The position numbers were made by a program, and so were the translations under genes. The notes under the pieces were generated by a model. The model was given only the letters and a program-made list of their open reading frames with translations. It was not told the origin of the DNA and did no database searches. Positions 2,141 to 27,384 of a stretch of 64,000 bases of DNA are shown here, piece after piece (position 1 is the first letter of the stretch; every line of letters starts with the position of its first letter). This stretch comes from a candidate division WOR-3 bacterium (GTDB taxonomy: Bacteria > Hydrothermota > Tepidihabitantia > Tepidihabitantales > Tepidihabitantaceae), in NCBI GenBank assembly GCA_965649295.1, contig CBFGKH010000007.1, forward strand, positions 75,464-139,463, written 5' to 3'.

Positions 2141-3511
2141 TCAGCGGCTGAGTCGAGGCGACCAAGAAGGAGAGAAGGCCCCCCCGATGTTAGTAACGCG
2201 TCGTTGATTTGTTCCGTTCCAGTCCATTGTGTAGAGTTCGTTTGTCCCGCTCCGCTGTGATACATACGCGATATGCAAACCGTCCGGCGACCACGTCGGG
2301 TCCTCGTTGTTACTACCGCCGGTAAGGCGCATGTAGGTGTCGCCCATGATGTTGGTAACACAGATCTGATTGCTGCCGCCGGGTTGGCGTTGAACAAAGG
2401 CAATGAGGTCGCCACGTGGCGACCAGGCAGGTGACGTGTTGTAGCTGCCTTCGAATGTGAGACGACGAAGACCGGTGCCGTCGGCGTTCATGACGTATAT
2501 CTGAGGGGAGCCGGTTCGATCTGAGACGAATGCAAGCTGACGGCCGTTAGGCGCCCAGCAGGGAGAGATATCGATACCTGGACTGTGGGTCAGACGCCGC
2601 AGATTGCGTCCGTCCGAATCAACAAGGTAGATTTCTGGCTGGCCCTCGAAGCTTAGAGAAATGGCGATGGTGCGGCCATCAGGCGACCAGGCTGGGGTAG
2701 TGTTCAGACCGGGACGGTCAGATACCAATGTCACTTTCCGCGAACCTAGTTCAAGACAATAGGTGTTGAGCGTGGTTCTACCGTAAGCGCTATAGCAGAT
2801 GCGATTGCCGTCTGGGGACCAGTCTGGATAGAGTTTCAACCCGCCGGAGGTTGTGAGCTGGACCATGTTGGCGCCGTCGTAGTCAACAACTGCCAGTTCT
2901 TTTGTCTCGCGATCGAACTGGCGGGAGAAGACGATCCGCGTACGGCTGACGCCTTCTTCGCCGGTAAGGAGTTTGATAACCTCGTCGGCCATCGTATGGG
3001 CAACCCAACGATGGTTACCCTCGAGGCTGAATTCCTTGGTGGCGATCAGCCGGCTCATTTCGAGGTCGTAGAGCCGAAGTGTAATGCCTGTGCCGCTGCG
3101 GCGCGGCACGATCTCGCCAGCAATGAGGACTTGGGCGCCGGTACTGCTCCAGCCTTTCAAGTCGGGTTTACGTGGATCGGTCGAGAAGGTGAAACGCCGT
3201 CCGGATTCTGGTTCCTGAAATGTGAAGTGGAGCGAAAACTTCAGGTCGGCGGTGAAGACTTCCTGGACCTCGCGGCCAGTTGCCGCGACGGTTGCGCTGA
3301 CATTCTTGGCGGCGTTGAAGTCAGCAATGACTAGGTCGAGTTTTTTGCGGCCACCACTAGATGTTAGCTTGAGCCAGAGTTCTTCAGCAGGGATGCCGAT
3401 GTCAGCCGGCGGAGCTGGGGTTAGAGTCGGTTGCTGGGCTGCAGCAATGGTGGTGACGGTCAGTAACAGTGGTAAGAAGAACAAACGAGAAAAACCGAGT
3501 CTCGGGGACAC
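2141..3511 (-). CDS. TolB-like periplasmic beta-propeller protein (PD40/WD40-like repeats)
   Basis: 456 aa with an N-terminal signal peptide. Repeated WSPDG / SPDG blade motifs (WSPDGNRI, WSPDGRTI, WAPNGRQL, WSPRGDLI, WSPDGLHI). Last gene of a 5-gene operon. Confidence 0.7.
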   Translation of the reverse strand: MSPRLGFSRLFFLPLLLTVTTIAAAQQPTLTPAPPADIGIPAEELWLKLTSSGGRKKLDLVIADFNAAKNVSATVAATGREVQEVFTADLKFSLHFTFQEPESGRRFTFSTDPRKPDLKGWSSTGAQVLIAGEIVPRRSGTGITLRLYDLEMSRLIATKEFSLEGNHRWVAHTMADEVIKLLTGEEGVSRTRIVFSRQFDRETKELAVVDYDGANMVQLTTSGGLKLYPDWSPDGNRICYSAYGRTTLNTYCLELGSRKVTLVSDRPGLNTTPAWSPDGRTIAISLSFEGQPEIYLVDSDGRNLRRLTHSPGIDISPCWAPNGRQLAFVSDRTGSPQIYVMNADGTGLRRLTFEGSYNTSPAWSPRGDLIAFVQRQPGGSNQICVTNIMGDTYMRLTGGSNNEDPTWSPDGLHIAYVSQRSGTNELYTMDWNGTNQRRVTNIGGAFSPSWSPRLSR

Positions 3512-5795: not shown

Positions 5796-6934
5796 TAGTA
5801 AGCGGGTGTTGCCCAGGTAACCAGCCTTTCGAACGCCGTGGCCAGAAATGGCACGCGGTGCCCTAGTAGAGTGTCGATCGTCCCGATCAGAACGACCAGT
5901 CCGATGAACACAATCAGCCAGAGTCGAATGAAGTCTTCACCCTTGAGCGAACCTAGCATCACCGGTTCGGGGCGAAGATAGCATGACGCAGCATAGATTT
6001 CTTCACCGATCATCGTGTAATCACAGGCCGCCACGAAGAACGGTAGCTGGGTGGTCTCAGTGGTTCCAGCGAGCTGGATTGCGCCAACCGAATGGCCGGT
6101 TTCGGCCATTATCAGCGATTCGGCATAGAAGTAGCCGAGCCAAAAGATGGCTCCTGGCTTCTCGCGGAGAATGATTCCATCAACACCAGCAGCGTAACCG
6201 AACTGGTCAGAAGTAAGGAAGCTAATGTTATCCGGATTGTAGAAGTCGGGACGACCGGTTTCGGTGTATGCTTCTTTGACAGTCTCTTGGGCAGCTGACA
6301 TCACGATTGGATCAGAATTAGGTACAAGCAGTCGGGTTGAGTATTCTGCAGACTTCCGAGCGATTTTGCGCAGGAGGGGGAGAGCCGCCACGACGACAAT
6401 GTCAGTGATATAGCCAAGGCCGAAAGAGAAGAGTATCGGTCTGCCCATTTCGGTTGCCCGGCCGAGCGCGTCGTCGATTGCATCGAGTCCGGCGATCTTG
6501 CGAACGTACATCTTGACACCACGGCGAGCGCGTTGAATGTAGAGGATGAAGATGGCGCTGATGACCACTGCCGCTACAAGGATGTTCACGCGGGCAGTGT
6601 TGAACCACTGGGCACTGCTTTGGACCGGTCCGAAGACTGCGCTGCGAGCAGTGTCAGTAGCGTAGCAGGCGTCCACAGCGTAGTAGTAGTCCGTGTGGTT
6701 CGCTACGTTGTTATCAGCGAACTCGGTGTTTGTTGCCGGTTCAGTTCCGACGACGACGAATCCCGTGTCAGGAGACTGCGAGCGGAGGACACGGTAGCCG
6801 AGTACTGGATTAGAATCTTCTGGTGGGGTCCAGCTGATGATTATCGAATTGCCCTGATCATTGGGGTTGTCGGTAGCGACAACATTGGCAGGCGGTAGTG
6901 CCGCTAGAATGGCGAGTAGCGAGAGAAGTGTCAT
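5795..6934 (-). CDS. membrane protein with N-terminal extracytoplasmic fibronectin-III-like domain
   Basis: 379 aa. Signal peptide, then an FN3-like segment (IISWTPPEDSNPVLGYRVLRSQSPDTGF...TDYYYAV), one transmembrane helix (VNILVAAVVISAIFILYI), a large domain, and a C-terminal transmembrane helix. First gene of the operon. Confidence 0.5.
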   Translation of the reverse strand: MTLLSLLAILAALPPANVVATDNPNDQGNSIIISWTPPEDSNPVLGYRVLRSQSPDTGFVVVGTEPATNTEFADNNVANHTDYYYAVDACYATDTARSAVFGPVQSSAQWFNTARVNILVAAVVISAIFILYIQRARRGVKMYVRKIAGLDAIDDALGRATEMGRPILFSFGLGYITDIVVVAALPLLRKIARKSAEYSTRLLVPNSDPIVMSAAQETVKEAYTETGRPDFYNPDNISFLTSDQFGYAAGVDGIILREKPGAIFWLGYFYAESLIMAETGHSVGAIQLAGTTETTQLPFFVAACDYTMIGEEIYAASCYLRPEPVMLGSLKGEDFIRLWLIVFIGLVVLIGTIDTLLGHRVPFLATAFERLVTWATPAY

Positions 6935-20220: not shown

Positions 20221-20885
20221 GCGAGCACGACATCCGGCCGAGTGCCAGCTACCATGAGCTGATTGATGCGCTGAGGTTTGGCTGTCCGGTCTGCGTCGTC
20301 GTCGGTCGGCGCATTCAGCGCTGGATTGACACCCTGCTCTATGAGCACGTCAATGACGGCCCAATCCGGGTCCGATTGCGGCGCTCACTTGGATTCTGTA
20401 ACCGGCACGCGTGGCTCGTGAGGGCGGCCGGGGATGCTCTTGGCCAGGTGACCATCTACGAGGACATCCTGACGGTAGCGGCACAACAACTGCAAGGCGG
20501 CCGGCTACCACTACCGGGTAGTGAGTGCATCTTGTGCCAGGAGGAAGCGGCAGTGCGAAGGGCGGCTATTGACGAGTTTGTCCGGCATCTGCACGATGAC
20601 GAACTGCAGGCTCGCTACCGCGAGTCAACCGGGCTCTGTCTAGTGCACCTTGGCGATGCCTTGGCGCACGCCGATGACGCCGCGCTGCGAACCGAGCTTC
20701 TCCAAGTCGAGTACCAAAAGGTCGTAGGTATCGTCGGTGACCTGGCTGAGCTCAAGCGGCGTCAGGACTGGCGCTTGGCCGGCAGGCCACCGGGCCGTGA
20801 GCGTGACGCTTGGGATCGAGCAATCGAGAAACTACGCGGTCGGCCGGGCACAAGCAGCGGAAACGAAGGCGTAGCTAGCAGATGA
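20217..20885 (+). CDS. Cys-rich protein with two tandem CxxC...CxxH metal-binding motifs, unknown function
   Basis: 222 aa. GCPVC...FCNRHAW and CILC...LCLVHLG form a duplicated CxxC-(30-40)-CxxH pattern. Stop overlaps the next start. Confidence 0.5.
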   Translation: MSEHDIRPSASYHELIDALRFGCPVCVVVGRRIQRWIDTLLYEHVNDGPIRVRLRRSLGFCNRHAWLVRAAGDALGQVTIYEDILTVAAQQLQGGRLPLPGSECILCQEEAAVRRAAIDEFVRHLHDDELQARYRESTGLCLVHLGDALAHADDAALRTELLQVEYQKVVGIVGDLAELKRRQDWRLAGRPPGRERDAWDRAIEKLRGRPGTSSGNEGVASR

Positions 20886-21478
20886 CAATGGCAGGAGACG
20901 ACCGAGTTATTGGTCGGTGCCGAATCTGCAACGAGCCAATGAAAGCCGGACAGGTCTTCTGTTTCGCCTGTGGCGCACGACCGAATGAGCGCGCACCGCA
21001 TCCCGGGTTTCGATTCGGTCTCGGCACCTTCGCCGTACTCGCAGTTGCCTGGTTACTGCTGGCTGGGCTGGTGGTTGTTCCGATTGTCTCAGGCCAGTCC
21101 TGGCGGACAGTGCTGGGGCGACCGGCGACTGCCGCAAGTGACGATGCTGACGAGGTCAGAGCTGCCGCCAATCTGACTGCCCAATATCAGCGCCGGGTGA
21201 ATCTGCTGCTGCGCGAGGTCGCCCACATTAGGCATGGCGGCGGCCGTCGTGCGTCGGTCGACTCGCTGGCCGCGATACTCGACTGGGCCCGGGTTCAGCT
21301 CCAAGCAACCCGACAGATGGCCGGCGTCTTTGCCGTCGTCACTGACTCCGAAGCCCAGAGCGACGTACAGCGGTTTCTCGACGACCGGCTCCACAAGATA
21401 CAGTCGCGGCTCGATCAAGTTTCGCCTGGCAGCCGCTACCAGCCTGCGGCCGCCCGCGCTGGAACCGCGCTGCCCTGA
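20882..21478 (+). CDS. zinc-ribbon membrane protein
   Basis: 198 aa. N-terminal CRICNEPMKAGQVFCFACG zinc ribbon, then a transmembrane helix (FAVLAVAWLLLAGLVVVPIV). Confidence 0.45.
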   Translation: MTMAGDDRVIGRCRICNEPMKAGQVFCFACGARPNERAPHPGFRFGLGTFAVLAVAWLLLAGLVVVPIVSGQSWRTVLGRPATAASDDADEVRAAANLTAQYQRRVNLLLREVAHIRHGGGRRASVDSLAAILDWARVQLQATRQMAGVFAVVTDSEAQSDVQRFLDDRLHKIQSRLDQVSPGSRYQPAAARAGTALP

Positions 21479-21790: not shown

Positions 21791-21818
21791 TTGACAGCAT
21801 TATGTCAGCATCTATGAT
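21791..21818 (+). promoter_or_regulatory. candidate sigma70 promoter for the TM2 gene
   Basis: TTGACA (21791-21796), 16 nt, TATGAT (21813-21818). AAGGAGGA RBS at 21827-21834. Confidence 0.45.
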
Positions 21819-21838
21819 TGGCCACAAAGGAGGACTGT

Positions 21839-22150
21839 GTGTATTGTAAGAACTGTGGTGCGGAGATTAGCGACAACGCCGACGTCTGTGTCAAGTGCGG
21901 CGTGGCCGTGACGAAGCCAATTGAGAAGCCCGAGAAGCTGCCCGGCCAGAAGGATTGGCTGACAGCGCTGCTACTTTCGATATTCCTCGGACAGTTGGGC
22001 GTGGACCGGTTCTATCTGGGCTATGTCGGGCTGGGAATCATCAAGTTACTGACCGCGGGCGGGTGTGGTATCTGGTGGTTGATTGATGTCATCATTATTG
22101 CCGGCAACAACCTGAAGGACGCCCAGGGCAGACCTTTGTACAAGAGCTAG
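21839..22150 (+). CDS. TM2-domain protein with N-terminal zinc ribbon
   Basis: GTG start 5 nt after the AAGGAGGA RBS; the ORF track uses TTG at 21818. CKNCGAEISDNADVCVKCG zinc ribbon. TM2 signature LLLSIFLGQLGVDRFYLGYVGLGIIKL. Confidence 0.7.
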   Translation: MYCKNCGAEISDNADVCVKCGVAVTKPIEKPEKLPGQKDWLTALLLSIFLGQLGVDRFYLGYVGLGIIKLLTAGGCGIWWLIDVIIIAGNNLKDAQGRPLYKS

Positions 22151-22163
22151 CAGAGAGCAGGTC

Positions 22164-22556
22164 GTGCAGCGACAGCAGCTTGTGACTGCGGCTTTGCTTT
22201 CGGCCGCAGTTGTTCTGCTGATAGTGATTCCGCCGTCATTCTTCGAGCGGCTTCCTTCGGTCTGTCTCCACCAATGGTTGTTTCGACTGGTCGGATTACG
22301 GGGGGCAGCTTGCTGCCCGGGCTGCGGTAGCGTGCGGGCGTTATCGCACCTGTTTCACGGTCAGATTGCCCAGGCAGTCAGGTACAACGTCAACTGCCTG
22401 TTGATTGCGCCGCTCGTCATCGGTCTCATTGCCCTCAATTTTGGTCGCTGGCTGCACGGCCGGATAACAAGTCAGAGCCGGATTACGGCACTCCGTGCTG
22501 GCGACTTGCCGGGTCGCATCGTCGAGCCGGATTGTGAGTCTTCGCGTATCATGTAA
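22164..22556 (+). CDS. DUF2752-family membrane protein
   Basis: 130 aa. CPGCGSVRA motif (DUF2752 consensus CPxCGxTRA) between two transmembrane helices. Confidence 0.6.
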   Translation: MQRQQLVTAALLSAAVVLLIVIPPSFFERLPSVCLHQWLFRLVGLRGAACCPGCGSVRALSHLFHGQIAQAVRYNVNCLLIAPLVIGLIALNFGRWLHGRITSQSRITALRAGDLPGRIVEPDCESSRIM

Positions 22557-23079
22557 CTACCTTTCCGTCCGAACCCAGCCGGACCGTTCTCCATTCGTAG
22601 TTTCCGTGCTTGAGGACACGGCGAATCGAATCCTGAATCCGCTCGCGCCGCTTATCGCGCGCTGGGCCGTCAAGAAGCACGAGCCTTCGGACCGACTCGC
22701 GTAGCGTCATACCGTCGAATACCACGAAGTCAACTGGGTCGAACATCGGCTTTAGGTCCTGTGGATAATAGCCGAGTCTGCTGATTGTGGGAACGCGCTT
22801 CTTGAGCATCGCCGGCAGTCGCCGTCGGCCCATCTCCTGCGCGCGTCGGCGCAGTTCTGCCTTTTGTTCCTCAAACCGCTCTTCGGCAAGGTCCATGCGC
22901 CGCTTTCTGTCTCGGAGTTCATCAAGCCACGTGCGTTTGGGCTTTGCTCGATACGATAGTTTCATCTCGCTGAGACGGTGGATTCCGCCACAACGCGGGC
23001 AGACGACTAGTATGCGCTGGAAGTCTTGGAATGCAGCCAGAATCGGAGTTCTCATAGCTTCCCTCGGTAAGTGGCCCAA
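22549..23079 (-). CDS. PD-(D/E)xK Holliday-junction-resolvase-like endonuclease-family protein; paralog with degenerate catalytic motif
   Basis: 176 aa. N-terminal CPRCGG zinc knuckle, coiled-coil middle. C-terminal LKPMFDPVDFVVFDGM...LVLLDGPARDKRRERIQDSIRRVLKHGNYEW aligns to its upstream paralog, but the VKTG lysine is replaced (DGPA). Confidence 0.5.
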   Translation of the reverse strand: MGHLPREAMRTPILAAFQDFQRILVVCPRCGGIHRLSEMKLSYRAKPKRTWLDELRDRKRRMDLAEERFEEQKAELRRRAQEMGRRRLPAMLKKRVPTISRLGYYPQDLKPMFDPVDFVVFDGMTLRESVRRLVLLDGPARDKRRERIQDSIRRVLKHGNYEWRTVRLGSDGKVVT

Positions 23080-23549
23080 TTGACCTTCCCGCGTTCAACC
23101 GCGTCTCTTATCTGCTTCTGAGTTGGGGTGAGTTGTGCACCGCCAGTCTTCACATCGAAGAAGAGGATTGAGTCAACTCTGCCGTTAGCAGCGGCAAGAC
23201 CGTTGAACGCAACGTAGTCAATCGGCTCAAAGAGCGGCCTGAGGTCGCGGCAGTCCATGTCGAACCCGCTCATCGCGGGGGCTACCTTTTCAAGTATCTT
23301 GCCGATGTTGATTGAGACCGTGGCCGTTTGAGAACGTTCCTTGAGCTTGCGCCGTGCTTCGCGCAGGTTCTTTCTCCTCTCTTCCAGGCTGGCTTCCCAT
23401 TCGTCCAGCACCGCTTTGGCTTCTGCGGGGACCGGGTCGCCAATGTAGAACATCACGGCGTCCGCGAGGGAGAACATCTCCCCGCTGTCCGGGCACTCTG
23501 CCAGTATTCGGCGGTCGGCCTGCAGCTCGGCGATAGTATTCTGTTTCAT
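23052..23549 (-). CDS. PD-(D/E)xK Holliday-junction-resolvase-like endonuclease (Endonuc_Holl / COG4741-like)
   Basis: 165 aa. C-terminal LRPLFEPIDYVAFNGL...VDSILFFDVKTGGAQLTPTQKQIRDAVERGKVNW (D...D-V-K core). The family assignment is from memory of the motif. Confidence 0.55.
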   Translation of the reverse strand: MKQNTIAELQADRRILAECPDSGEMFSLADAVMFYIGDPVPAEAKAVLDEWEASLEERRKNLREARRKLKERSQTATVSINIGKILEKVAPAMSGFDMDCRDLRPLFEPIDYVAFNGLAAANGRVDSILFFDVKTGGAQLTPTQKQIRDAVERGKVNWATYRGKL

Positions 23550-23618
23550 TCGTTTCTCCAGTTTCTCCCAGTCTCGTCCAAGCGGGACAAAAGCGCGGAG
23601 CTGTCGCCCCTGTCGGGA

Positions 23619-23646
23619 GCATAGGAGTGCGAGTGAGCGAAGTCAA
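23619..23646 (-). promoter_or_regulatory. candidate promoter for the nuclease pair
   Basis: On the minus strand: TTGACT (23646..23641), 16 nt, TATGCT (23624..23619). Confidence 0.35.
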
Positions 23647-23749: not shown

Positions 23750-24116
23750 TCAGCGGGAGCCGGTCGCCGGTCTGATTCGGACGCCGTCGCGGGTGATGAT
23801 TATGAGACGGCCTCGTATTCTGTCCTCGGACAACGACTGGAAGTGACGCCGGAACGTCGCGGTTGCCTGTGCGACGGTCATCCGGTAGAGCTTGGCAACC
23901 ACTATGCCGCCGCACTTTGCAGGTGGGAATCTGAGCGAGCGCGTGAAGTCCTTGTCCATTGTGACGATAACCAGTTGCTCCCTGACCGCCCGTTCGAAGA
24001 CCGCTTCGTCGGGTGCACCGGCCAGTTCAGTATGTTTAGTGTCGAAGACTGAGTGGCCGGCAGCGCAGATACTCTACGATCGGGTCGTAGAGATTCTCAT
24101 TCGCCAGTATCCTCAC
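23750..24116 (-). pseudogene. DUF5615 (PIN-like/Mut7-C toxin-like) gene interrupted by a 1-nt frameshift
   Basis: The GTG start overlaps the DUF433 stop. Frame A reads VRILANENLYDPIVEYLR then hits a stop. Frame B continues ...AAGHSVFDTKHTELAGAPDEAVFERAVREQLVIVTMDKDFTRS...IIITRDGVRIRPATGSR. The shift lies near 24058-24066. Confidence 0.55.
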
Positions 24117-24337
24117 ATCGTGACGCCGGCTTCTTCTTCGGCCAGCATTGCCGCATAGCCGATACAGGCTTGGATGTCGTTATCGGTGAGGTCAGGATAA
24201 GCCCTTCTGATGCCGTCGTATGTCTCGCCGGCCGCTAGCAGGTCGAGGATGATATGGACAGGAATCCGGGTCCCTCTAATACAGGGCTTGCCGCTGCAGA
24301 TCCGCGCGTCAGAGGAAATTCTGTCTTGCCAGAGCAT
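24113..24337 (-). CDS. DUF433 antitoxin-like protein
   Basis: 74 aa. CSGKPCIRGTRIPVHIILDLLAAGETYDGIRRAYPDLTDNDIQACIGYAA is the DUF433 signature. Confidence 0.75.
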   Translation of the reverse strand: MLWQDRISSDARICSGKPCIRGTRIPVHIILDLLAAGETYDGIRRAYPDLTDNDIQACIGYAAMLAEEEAGVTM

Positions 24338-25611: not shown

Positions 25612-26361
25612 ATGATCAAGCTGCGGAGACGGGACGATTCCGGGAAGATAACCGAATGGGAGGTCACATACGGTGAGCTTGAAATGGGGTTGATGCTGAA
25701 CAAGATTGATCCCCTAATTGAAGTCTGGTCAGACACGCTGACCCAGGGCCAGTGGAAACCGGTCCACGAGTTGACGCTGTACAAGGAGTTCGTTGGCGAA
25801 CGTCAAGACAAGGGAGAGGGCAAGTGGACGTGCGGGGTGTGTGGCAGACAGTGCAAGGGCACCAACGACCGCTGCTGGTACTGCAACATGCCAAAAGGCA
25901 GCGGACAAACAGCAGCAGCAATAGAACAGTCTTACACGGCTCTCGGCACACTAGAGTCGGATAGTCAATATAGTGGCTATCGTAGATTCTCCGCAGGTTT
26001 GTTCGCCCTCTTGCTCCTAGTATTTGCGCTGCCATTCGTGCGTTTGACATGCGGCGGCGACGAAGTGGCGAGATTCTCAGGCTATGAGCTGGCTGTCGGG
26101 AAAACCGTAGAGACTTCGAGTACCGGTGGCCATGAACAGCGCACGGTGCGCCCCAATTTTCTTGCGATACTCGTCATTGCTACTGCGATCGCTGGTCTTT
26201 CCCTGTGCGTGATGTCAGACCGCGCAGGTGCTGTGGCTAGGACAGTGGCAAGTGGGATTGGGATACTGCTTCTGTTTGTTCTATCGAGCAGCGTCACTGA
26301 TGAAATCGCCAAGGAAGGGGGGGCGTACTCAAGGTGGAATTCCTTGGAGGCTACTACCTGA
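25612..26361 (+). CDS. zinc-ribbon membrane protein
   Basis: 249 aa. AAGGAGG RBS. CGVCGRQCKGTNDRCWYCNMP zinc ribbon followed by four hydrophobic helices. Confidence 0.55.
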   Translation: MIKLRRRDDSGKITEWEVTYGELEMGLMLNKIDPLIEVWSDTLTQGQWKPVHELTLYKEFVGERQDKGEGKWTCGVCGRQCKGTNDRCWYCNMPKGSGQTAAAIEQSYTALGTLESDSQYSGYRRFSAGLFALLLLVFALPFVRLTCGGDEVARFSGYELAVGKTVETSSTGGHEQRTVRPNFLAILVIATAIAGLSLCVMSDRAGAVARTVASGIGILLLFVLSSSVTDEIAKEGGAYSRWNSLEATT

Positions 26362-26564
26362 GCCTGTTTCTGTTTCTAGGCGCAAGTGTTCTCAACTTTC
26401 TGTCACTGCTTCCCAAGCCCGTGGCAGATGCGACTCCGGCAACCGGTCCGCCGACGCGATCTACGTCCAGACAGGTGAATTACTGTCCGAATTGCGGTAA
26501 ACCCGTTTCGTCGGGGGATACCTTCTGCTCTAATTGCGGTGACCGGGTACGAGAAGATGTCTGA
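26334..26564 (+). CDS. small membrane protein with C-terminal zinc ribbon
   Basis: 76 aa. Transmembrane helix, then CPNCGKPVSSGDTFCSNCG. GTG start inside the 3' end of the previous gene, with a weak RBS. Confidence 0.4.
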   Translation: MEFLGGYYLSLFLFLGASVLNFLSLLPKPVADATPATGPPTRSTSRQVNYCPNCGKPVSSGDTFCSNCGDRVREDV

Positions 26565-26901: not shown

Positions 26902-27384
26902 TTGCCTAGCTGTGCTAGGTGTGCGGCCTTAGTCAAGGACGGTCAGAAGTTCTGTCACCGGTGTGGCGCGGATCTGGCCGATGAGGCCGCGGAAGAGCAC
27001 ACCGAGGAAGAGCAGCGCGATGGCGTACATCGTGAACGGCTTGACCGCCCAGTTGACAAAGAGCGTGAGCCCGACCGGCTTGGCGCTGCGGCCGGCCTTG
27101 AGCACCTCGGCGAAGTCTATCTTCACCATGATGGGATACATCATGAAGAAGAGGCAGACGGCAATCGGGATGGAGATGACCGGCGCGCCGCCGGAATAGA
27201 TAGCGAGGCCGTCCAGAGTGCGCGCGACCGAAGGCGCAAGCCGGCCGAGCAGGATGCCCGCGCCGATGCAGGCCAGCACCCAGACGGTCAGGTATTTCTC
27301 AAAGACGCTCAGGCCTTTGGGTTTCTTCTCGATACGGGCTTCAGTGACGGGGGACACCTGCCTGCCTCCTCAGGTGGACACTGA
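26902..27384 (+). CDS. possible zinc-ribbon ORF; only the first ~25 aa are convincing
   Basis: AGGGAGG RBS 6 nt before the TTG start. [20 protein letters not shown] zinc ribbon. The remainder is a charged low-complexity read-through that is antisense to the acr3 fragment. Confidence 0.3.
26929..27357 (-). pseudogene. acr3 (arsenite efflux permease) N-terminal remnant
   Basis: The 142 aa ([23 protein letters not shown]...[13 protein letters not shown]...[22 protein letters not shown]) match the Acr3 N-terminus and then stop. No continuation in any frame downstream. Confidence 0.5.

Follow-up and report, generated by a model that had tools for sequence, protein, structure and literature searches.

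Why would a bacterium keep, directly behind the gene for an apparently intact nuclease, a paralog of that nuclease whose active-site motif is broken? This question is raised by two overlapping genes, here designated A and B, in a stretch of 64,000 nucleotides (the window) from a candidate division WOR-3 bacterium (GenBank assembly GCA_965649295.1, contig CBFGKH010000007.1, positions 75,464 to 139,463 of the forward strand). Both encode members of PF10107 (Endonuc_Holl, COG4741), a functionally uncharacterised family of predicted endonucleases distantly related to archaeal Holliday junction resolvase (PMC1189080, PMC3424549). We found that similar tandem pairs, all with one intact and one crippled member, are present in distant bacteria and archaea. 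The explanation that we favour, with moderate confidence, is that A and B form an obligate heteromeric PD-(D/E)xK endonuclease with a single active site, which is carried in mobile defence-island DNA.

Two paralogous PF10107 genes and their junction

Gene A (positions 23052-23549, minus strand) is an open reading frame (ORF) of 165 amino acids (aa) with an ATG start, and gene B (22549-23055, minus strand) encodes 168 aa from an ATG at 23055. In a Pfam scan, A scored 80.6 bits (E 1.5e-22) and B 32.3 bits (E 1.1e-7) against PF10107, both above the curated cutoff of 23.8 bits. The two proteins were 26% identical over their full length by BLASTP (E 1e-16), which excludes a chance resemblance and identifies them as paralogs. 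An initial annotation, made from the sequence alone, had described tandem paralogs with Endonuc_Holl-like domains and a common three-part layout; the PF10107 search confirmed the domains in both proteins, and the layout was recovered as an N-terminal hairpin, a long helix and a nuclease domain. Its boundaries had to be revised. The 28-nt overlap that it reported arose from the use of the first TTG (23079) as the start of B, and its upper limit at 23646 belongs to a spurious overlapping ORF, the start of A being at 23549. The start of B was assigned to ATG 23055, the position supported by the N-terminal sequences of 45 B homologs and by the conserved junction in related loci. The protein encoded by B has an identical counterpart in a public protein collection (P0028). 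No identical public protein was returned for the A of the window, for which the best match was 85% identical, and this gene may have been left uncalled in the source annotation.

The real overlap of the two genes is a 4-nt ATGA (23052-23055, minus strand), in which the TGA of A occupies 23054-23052. The sequence GAGGGA (23060-23065, minus strand), located within the final codons of A (..YRGKL) and 5 nt upstream of the ATG, resembles a Shine-Dalgarno site for B; relatives carry GGAGG at the equivalent place. An ATGA or GTGA junction was present in most bacterial-type pairs, with TAATG in one lineage, and the archaeal-type pairs had a gap of 3-16 nt between A and B. Judged from the sequence, the ATGA overlap indicates that translation of A and B is probably coupled.

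Each chain contains a single CxxC motif, which could supply only half the ligands of a four-ligand zinc site. In B this motif (C19, C22) was invariant in the alignment of 45 B-type sequences, and the A of the window has CPDS at residues 19-22, with the second Cys gone. The degenerate zinc knuckle of the initial annotation amounts to one CxxC per chain, only a half site, and to just CPDS in the A of the window. In the published description, COG4741 proteins are single proteins whose N-terminus carries a hydrophobic segment for the membrane or for secretion (PMC1189080). The N-termini of A and B (MKQNTIAELQADRRILAECPDSGE... and MRTPILAAFQDFQRILVVCPRCGG...) are polar, and neither the sequences nor an AlphaFold2 (AF2) model, which has a short helix plus a hairpin in this region, contained such a segment; the CxxC hairpin and a long helix are found in its place.

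Catalytic residues are intact in A and crippled in B

We aligned 25 A-type and 45 B-type proteins with several single-gene long forms, and placed all PF10107-like ORFs of 114 sequences (113 fetched loci and the window) on one profile. Feder and Bujnicki reported the motif E-(V/I)D-E(V/I)K for COG4741 (PMC1189080). The A of the window agrees with this motif (E87, I110-D111, D132-V-K134) and has a complete set of residues, namely E87, D111, D132 and K134, plus Q144. All A-type proteins of 64 distinct pairs keep E87, D111, an Asp or Glu at 132 and K134, and E87, D111 and K134 were invariant among the 25 aligned sequences. In the B of the window, the Glu of the motif has become K85 and the Lys P131; D100, D109, D129 and Q141 are kept. 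The difference is evident when the segments PIDYVAF...FFDVKTG of A and PVDFVVF...LLDGPAR of B are compared, and it supports the initial annotation, which had noted FFDVKTG in the upstream copy and DGPA in the downstream copy, had considered the latter apparently catalytically dead and had missed the additional loss of the Glu.

This asymmetry is general. The Glu was found in no full-length B-type protein, its position being occupied by K, R, N, S, C or M, and every B-type protein lacked either the Lys or the preceding acidic residue. The Lys position contained P in the clade of the window, designated the 'DGP' clade, and Q, E, A, T, V and other residues elsewhere; the preceding acid was replaced with S, T or A in some lineages. 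Such lineage-specific damage would be expected after catalysis was abandoned, and B is probably wholly dead. Other positions of its nuclease domain were invariant among the 45 aligned B-type sequences (D100, D109, F113, G115 and Q141). From these comparisons, B is a PF10107 member by homology and not by motif. Neither a pair with two catalytic copies nor a lack of profile similarity, the two outcomes that the initial annotation had named as fatal to its proposal, was observed, and the asymmetry was present in 64 of 64 distinct pairs.

A and B are maintained as a unit

Two paralogs, one with and one without the full catalytic residues, were found together in every A-then-B pair collected, as the initial annotation had suggested for this locus. 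Where upstream DNA was present, only two B genes were not preceded by a full A: the one in L035, which follows a 32-aa remnant of A, and the one in L078, which is part of a fused ORF. The ratio of nonsynonymous to synonymous substitution rates (dN/dS) was 0.05-0.19 for A and 0.06-0.21 for B in 9 close comparisons, and both genes are under purifying selection. These ratios, together with the conservation of B across domains of life, rule out that B is a decaying pseudogene. In a neighbour-joining tree, the A-type and B-type proteins formed separate clades (99 and 100 of 100 bootstraps, respectively), with the single-gene long forms in a third clade, and A-A and B-B distances were correlated (r = 0.81, 496 locus pairs). 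Both results indicate that the two genes arose by a single early duplication and have since been inherited and transferred together.

According to the genome records, hosts of the pair include candidate division WOR-3 (the closest relative, with 88% identity), a metagenome-assembled genome (MAG) of Bdellovibrio, Bathyarchaeia, Hadesarchaea and a Thaumarchaeota MAG. The family is rare. Of 1.84 billion representatives searched with the B profile, 84 clusters matched at E <= 1e-30 and 1,728 at E <= 1e-3. An in-frame fusion of A and B was detected in one locus (P0100, 331 aa; L051, 9509-10504). In its relatives L043 and L049, A and B lie in the same frame and are separated by one stop codon, and the fusion is either a natural read-through product or a sequencing error. 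Taken together, the coupling, purifying selection, co-phylogeny, motif asymmetry and this one fusion favour the view that A and B probably function as a unit.

Several related sequences deserve mention. A second candidate fusion, P0099, was rejected, as it looks like a frameshift artefact in which the C-terminus of the A half is out of frame. In L014, a WOR-3 MAG, A is split into two parts (2314-2757 and 6238-6537) by an insertion of ~3.5 kb, with B intact just downstream; a 679-aa ORF within the insertion groups with restriction-modification proteins of Type IIG (Eco57I-like). L046 has an additional divergent B-like copy (2516-3235, minus strand) just upstream of a normal A-B pair, and L029 (2-8443), from a MAG, is an unbroken frame of ~2,800 codons with a weak PF10107-like segment (~48 bits) that has the E and D..D positions. 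The single-gene long forms are 224-231 aa in length and keep the motif. A phage origin of the pair was rejected, only one pair being present among 2.9 million viral contigs, and the annotated phages and plasmids contained only distant single-gene PF10107 relatives. Such relatives occur on plasmids of Acidianus hospitalis and Sulfolobus islandicus, on one Nostoc plasmid and in Acinetobacter records; examples are H2 (NC_011299.1, 7436-7774) and H3 (NC_012624.1, 27265-27603).

Predicted structure of A

An AF2 model of A based on a family alignment of 125 rows had a mean predicted local distance difference test (pLDDT) score of 76; in an earlier model built with 25 sequences, the nuclease domain was poor (pLDDT 37-62). 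In the newer model, a short helix at the N-terminus is followed by a beta hairpin with the CxxC position in its turn, and then by a solitary 38-residue helix (residues 42-79, pLDDT 85-92). The nuclease domain consists of a helix (82-94) that holds E87, three strands (103-105, 112-116 and 127-131) and a helix (142-152) that holds Q144. D111 immediately precedes strand 112-116, and D132 and K134 immediately follow strand 127-131. The predicted order helix-strand-strand-strand-helix resembles that of the minimal PD-(D/E)xK core, with the motif residues at the canonical places. The length and exposure of the solitary helix in the monomer model suggest that it may pair with a partner helix. Sequence and profile searches of the PDB identified no solved structure related to A or B.

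Genomic context in other organisms

The surroundings of the pair were examined with 145 ORFs located within 1.4 kb of 55 pairs. The most common neighbours (14 of 145 ORFs) were metallo-beta-lactamase/RMMBL (beta-CASP) nucleases, followed by Type IIG restriction-modification enzymes (6 ORFs). Of the 41 pairs with enough upstream DNA, 15 had a beta-CASP gene no more than 300 nt upstream. This partner was confined to archaeal-type subclades, and neither the window nor any other member of the bacterial 'DGP' clade had it; the nearest solved relatives of the protein are EF2904 and RNase J. The beta-CASP proteins of ~470 aa are encoded directly upstream of A, on the same strand, in L043 (7177-8580), L018 (7788-9470), L116 (5675-7572) and 12 more loci, and their genes are often preceded by an overlapping ORF of 165-172 aa without a family match. 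In the P0139 loci, both the beta-CASP gene and the 165-172-aa ORF are nearby but divergent. The archaeal-type loci may represent a three- or four-gene system. All-against-all clustering of neighbours identified no conserved third gene in the bacterial clade.

Genes for HerA, Mre11 and Rad50 were found 1.3-6.5 kb from the pair in the archaeal-type loci L047 (2658-7553), L059/L114-116 (11254-17220 in L116), L065 and L066. NurA was confirmed only in L114-116, where a gene of the OLD-family TOPRIM type follows.

Neighbours of the pair varied from locus to locus and frequently included genes of defence systems and mobile elements. For example, we detected REase-ARP, methyltransferase, HinfI and HNH genes in L003, DndC/D/E in L006, and GmrSD, HEPN, VRR_NUC, TIR, integrase and DEAD/MZB helicase genes in L007. 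L114-116 contain VRR_NUC and OLD-TOPRIM genes besides NurA-HerA-Mre11-Rad50, and the P0139 loci an integrase, ThsB-TIR and TraG/TraC. An rve integrase, a methyltransferase with BglII and, directly upstream, an OLD-TOPRIM gene were found in L117; integrases, Vsr, Mrr_N, HNH and, directly upstream, Dcm in L118; and GmrSD, an integrase and ResIII with a methyltransferase in L120. Other neighbours were WYL, AAA and peptidase genes in L001 and housekeeping genes in L004, and nothing defence-like was present around L119. As a rough control, ten loci of single-gene long forms had mostly housekeeping neighbours and no recurrent partner. The association of the pair with defence islands is qualitative. 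The initial annotation had recommended looking for the pair beside toxin-antitoxin (TA) or defence genes in other genomes, and had regarded the locus itself as a candidate small defence or genome-maintenance island. Defence genes were often found beside the pair elsewhere, whereas the TA module of the window (DUF433/DUF5615) lay beside no other pair; the flanks of the pair in the window are unlike a defence island.

Proposed function and alternative explanations

We infer that A and B form a physical heterodimer which acts on DNA by nicking or asymmetric cleavage and has a role in defence. According to this proposal, both proteins would descend from a PF10107 nuclease of the homodimer type whose gene was duplicated once, long ago. 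A would provide the sole complete site, composed of the Glu of helix 1, the Asp before strand 2 and the Asp-x-Lys after strand 3, and B, its Glu and Lys gone, would have been retained by selection as a non-catalytic partner. The ATGA-coupled junction would yield near-equal amounts of the two chains, which may associate by way of the CxxC hairpins at their N-termini and the long helices. As only one of the two nuclease heads placed on the DNA would be live, the complex would make a one-strand or asymmetric cut, unlike the paired symmetric cuts of a homodimeric resolvase, and B might supply DNA binding or specificity, or restrain A. The small cassette appears to move between bacteria and archaea, landing mostly in defence islands and integrated elements, so that its most likely role is against foreign DNA or in the service of a mobile element rather than in housekeeping recombination.

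It is possible, if doubtful, that the pair is an unrecognised, self-contained immune or conflict module of bacteria and archaea. Here an obligate heterodimer of the XPF-ERCC1 kind, its chains joined by a parallel coiled coil and by a CxxC zinc site between them, would use its single site to nick or asymmetrically cut invading DNA, and archaeal lineages would pass the nicked DNA to the dedicated beta-CASP nuclease encoded just upstream.

Several observations weigh against a heteromeric defence nuclease. D100, D109 and, in the 'DGP' clade, D129 are retained in B, with K135, R136 and R137 nearby, and these Asp ligands and basic residues make residual or rescued catalysis in B conceivable. Only one sequence has the A-B fusion, which an error in sequencing could also explain. 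PADLOC-DB v2 had no match for A, B, the beta-CASP protein, its 165-aa neighbour or six ORFs flanking bacterial pairs. L004, L119 and the window lack defence neighbours, and the proximity of HerA-Mre11-Rad50 in four archaeal-type loci fits a role in repair equally well.

Some of the same features could be explained if A were a nuclease and B its inhibitor, as in TA or abortive-infection systems. A homodimers would be toxic, B would poison them by forming an inactive A:B complex, and loss or titration of B during infection or upon loss of the element would free A. The two genes overlap and make up a mobile cassette whose neighbourhoods are rich in defence genes, the dead member has the whole dimerisation layout of A, and in the window the pair adjoins another, decayed TA module. 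A small overlapping two-gene operon (ATGA; 165 and 168 aa) is also what is seen in type II TA systems. We consider this explanation unlikely, because B is as conserved as A and has invariant nuclease-domain residues that a mere helix plug would not need, and because an in-frame A-B fusion is hard to square with the release of a toxin. In addition, A and B matched no known TA family in Pfam, NCBIfam (which had no match of any kind for either protein) or PADLOC, and the nuclease gene comes first in the pair; toxin first is not the most common gene order in TA modules.

A chromosomal repair or recombination nuclease would leave the defence contexts as incidental. A and B would then process branched DNA or DNA ends together with the beta-CASP protein and Mre11-Rad50-HerA-NurA, in accordance with the upstream beta-CASP gene in 15 of 41 pairs, with the HerA-Mre11-Rad50 genes of L047, L059/L114-116, L065 and L066, and with the family name and motif, which tie PF10107 to junction resolvases (PMC1189080). 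This is quite unlikely given the patchy occurrence of the pair across distant phyla of both domains, with ~84 B-type clusters in 1.84 billion representatives, and given neighbours that vary by locus and commonly include integrases, conjugation and restriction-modification genes. The link to beta-CASP is missing from the whole bacterial 'DGP' clade, including the window, and the A gene split by 3.5 kb of inserted DNA in L014 suggests that the module is dispensable. Finally, A could be an ordinary homodimeric nuclease and B a protein recruited to a task unrelated to nuclease activity, such as control of the operon through DNA binding, the two genes remaining adjacent by operon inertia. A B protein without catalytic residues that is nevertheless under selection agrees with such uncoupled functions. 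They are very unlikely considering that gene order and coupling have persisted in bacteria and archaea alike although the pair was repeatedly transferred to unrelated surroundings, that A and B distances are correlated, that B almost never occurs without A and that an A-B fusion exists.

Comparison with known systems

All 125 aligned relatives matched PF10107, and the A/B pair resembles this family in that both proteins are above its threshold, A carries the family motif and the domain is a minimal nuclease core. Besides the N-terminal region discussed above, the pair differs from the described members in being an obligate tandem unit with one conserved, crippled member. It also differs from the single-gene long forms, which keep the motif and occur in mostly housekeeping contexts. 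A full-text search of literature mentioning PF10107 or COG4741 identified, among the papers listed, no description of a tandem active/inactive pair, and a search for literature on resolvase-like defence gene pairs returned nothing relevant. While the family itself was already known, its obligate paired form, its spread across domains and the beta-CASP association appear to be new.

The archaeal Hjc and Hje are dimeric PD-(D/E)xK enzymes that act on branched DNA, and the two identical chains of Hjc form a symmetric dimer, which nicks in pairs. The A/B pair shares with them the motif logic of the superfamily (Glu, Asp, Glu/Asp-x-Lys) and a small nuclease core. It differs in consisting of two unlike chains, only one of which is competent, with an additional N-terminal hairpin and helix; moreover, none of the 125 PF10107 family members matched the Hjc Pfam family. 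The role of Hjc has been described elsewhere (PMC7690668).

With regard to the zinc half site, each chain of A and B has one CP-x-CG motif beside a long helix, as in the Rad50 zinc hook. In that hook, two chains contribute one CxxC each, and both motifs bind a common zinc ion where a coiled coil ends. By analogy, the A and B chains could share an inter-chain four-Cys zinc site, which we offer as a lead only. The motif of the pair is N-terminal and precedes a single helix, whereas that of Rad50 is at the apex of an antiparallel coiled coil, and the A of the window lacks the second Cys.

A parallel in principle is provided by XPF-ERCC1 and MUS81-EME1, in which a homodimeric nuclease of the PD-(D/E)xK type was duplicated, one copy became inactive and the heterodimer cuts one strand at a junction. 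ERCC1 and EME1 are the inactive subunits. Members of the XPF family form homodimers in archaea and heterodimers in eukaryotes (PMC6320978). These enzymes have an ERCC4 domain and dimerise through (HhH)2, and A and B, which are prokaryotic proteins of 165-170 aa in a mobile cassette, have no sequence relation to them and are not members of that group.

PF10107 has been a predicted nuclease without a known function since 2005, and a whole branch of it exists only as a coupled pair. A heteromer with a single active site is a concrete, testable hypothesis for this family, and would be a prokaryotic example of the route from homodimer to active/inactive heterodimer known from eukaryotic XPF and MUS81. 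Protection against phages or plasmids by the cassette, if real, would add to the defence repertoire a very small two-gene system of ~1 kb and, in archaea, a three- or four-gene version containing a beta-CASP nuclease. A natural nicking heterodimer would also have practical interest.

Expression signals and surroundings in the window

A GGAG (23556-23559, minus strand) located 6 nt upstream of the ATG is the likely ribosome-binding site of A. A sigma-70-like promoter candidate, TTGACT-17-TATGCT (23618-23646, minus strand), is ~70 nt upstream of A and is a match to the consensus only; the consensus scan returned 4 sites compared to 0.4 expected in shuffled sequences. Its position between A and the remnant of a TA module would let the A/B pair start transcription separately from that remnant.

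The module consists of an intact DUF433 antitoxin-like gene (24113-24337, minus strand; Pfam 2.6e-24) and a frameshifted remnant of a DUF5615 (PIN-like) toxin gene (23750-24116, minus strand), which was identified with three-frame translations. The remnant has 27 N-terminal codons from GTG 24116 to a stop and at least 69 C-terminal codons in another frame, and its match to the DUF5615 profile covers only positions 55-109 (E 0.0023). The frameshift reflects either decay of the TA module or a mistake in the assembly. The initial annotation had placed the pair just downstream of DUF433/DUF5615. This position is correct (200 nt), but these genes are neighbours outside the A/B unit: a functional link was rejected, since no other locus, including the closest relative, L011, has the module beside the pair, and the toxin gene of the window is frameshifted.

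The four-gene minus-strand block is flanked by genes for DUF6062, several zinc-ribbon membrane proteins, TM2, DUF2752 and a Na+/H+ exchanger, and a cluster of the arsenic-resistance type, with ArsP, ArsR, methyltransferase and DsbD genes, is more distant in the window. The G+C content was 0.54-0.59 across ~21.6-26.8 kb, which includes the pair and the TA remnant, compared with 0.60-0.68 outside, a mild sign of foreign or variable DNA. In L011, whose B is 88% identical, the locus is partly syntenic, with the same zinc-ribbon gene and exchanger downstream. Five zinc-ribbon genes are located near the pair of the window (20882-21478, 21818-22150, 25612-26361, 26334-26564 and 26902-27384), which is an unusual local concentration. 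All five proteins have an N-terminal CxxC...CxxC, most have predicted membrane segments and one contains TM2.

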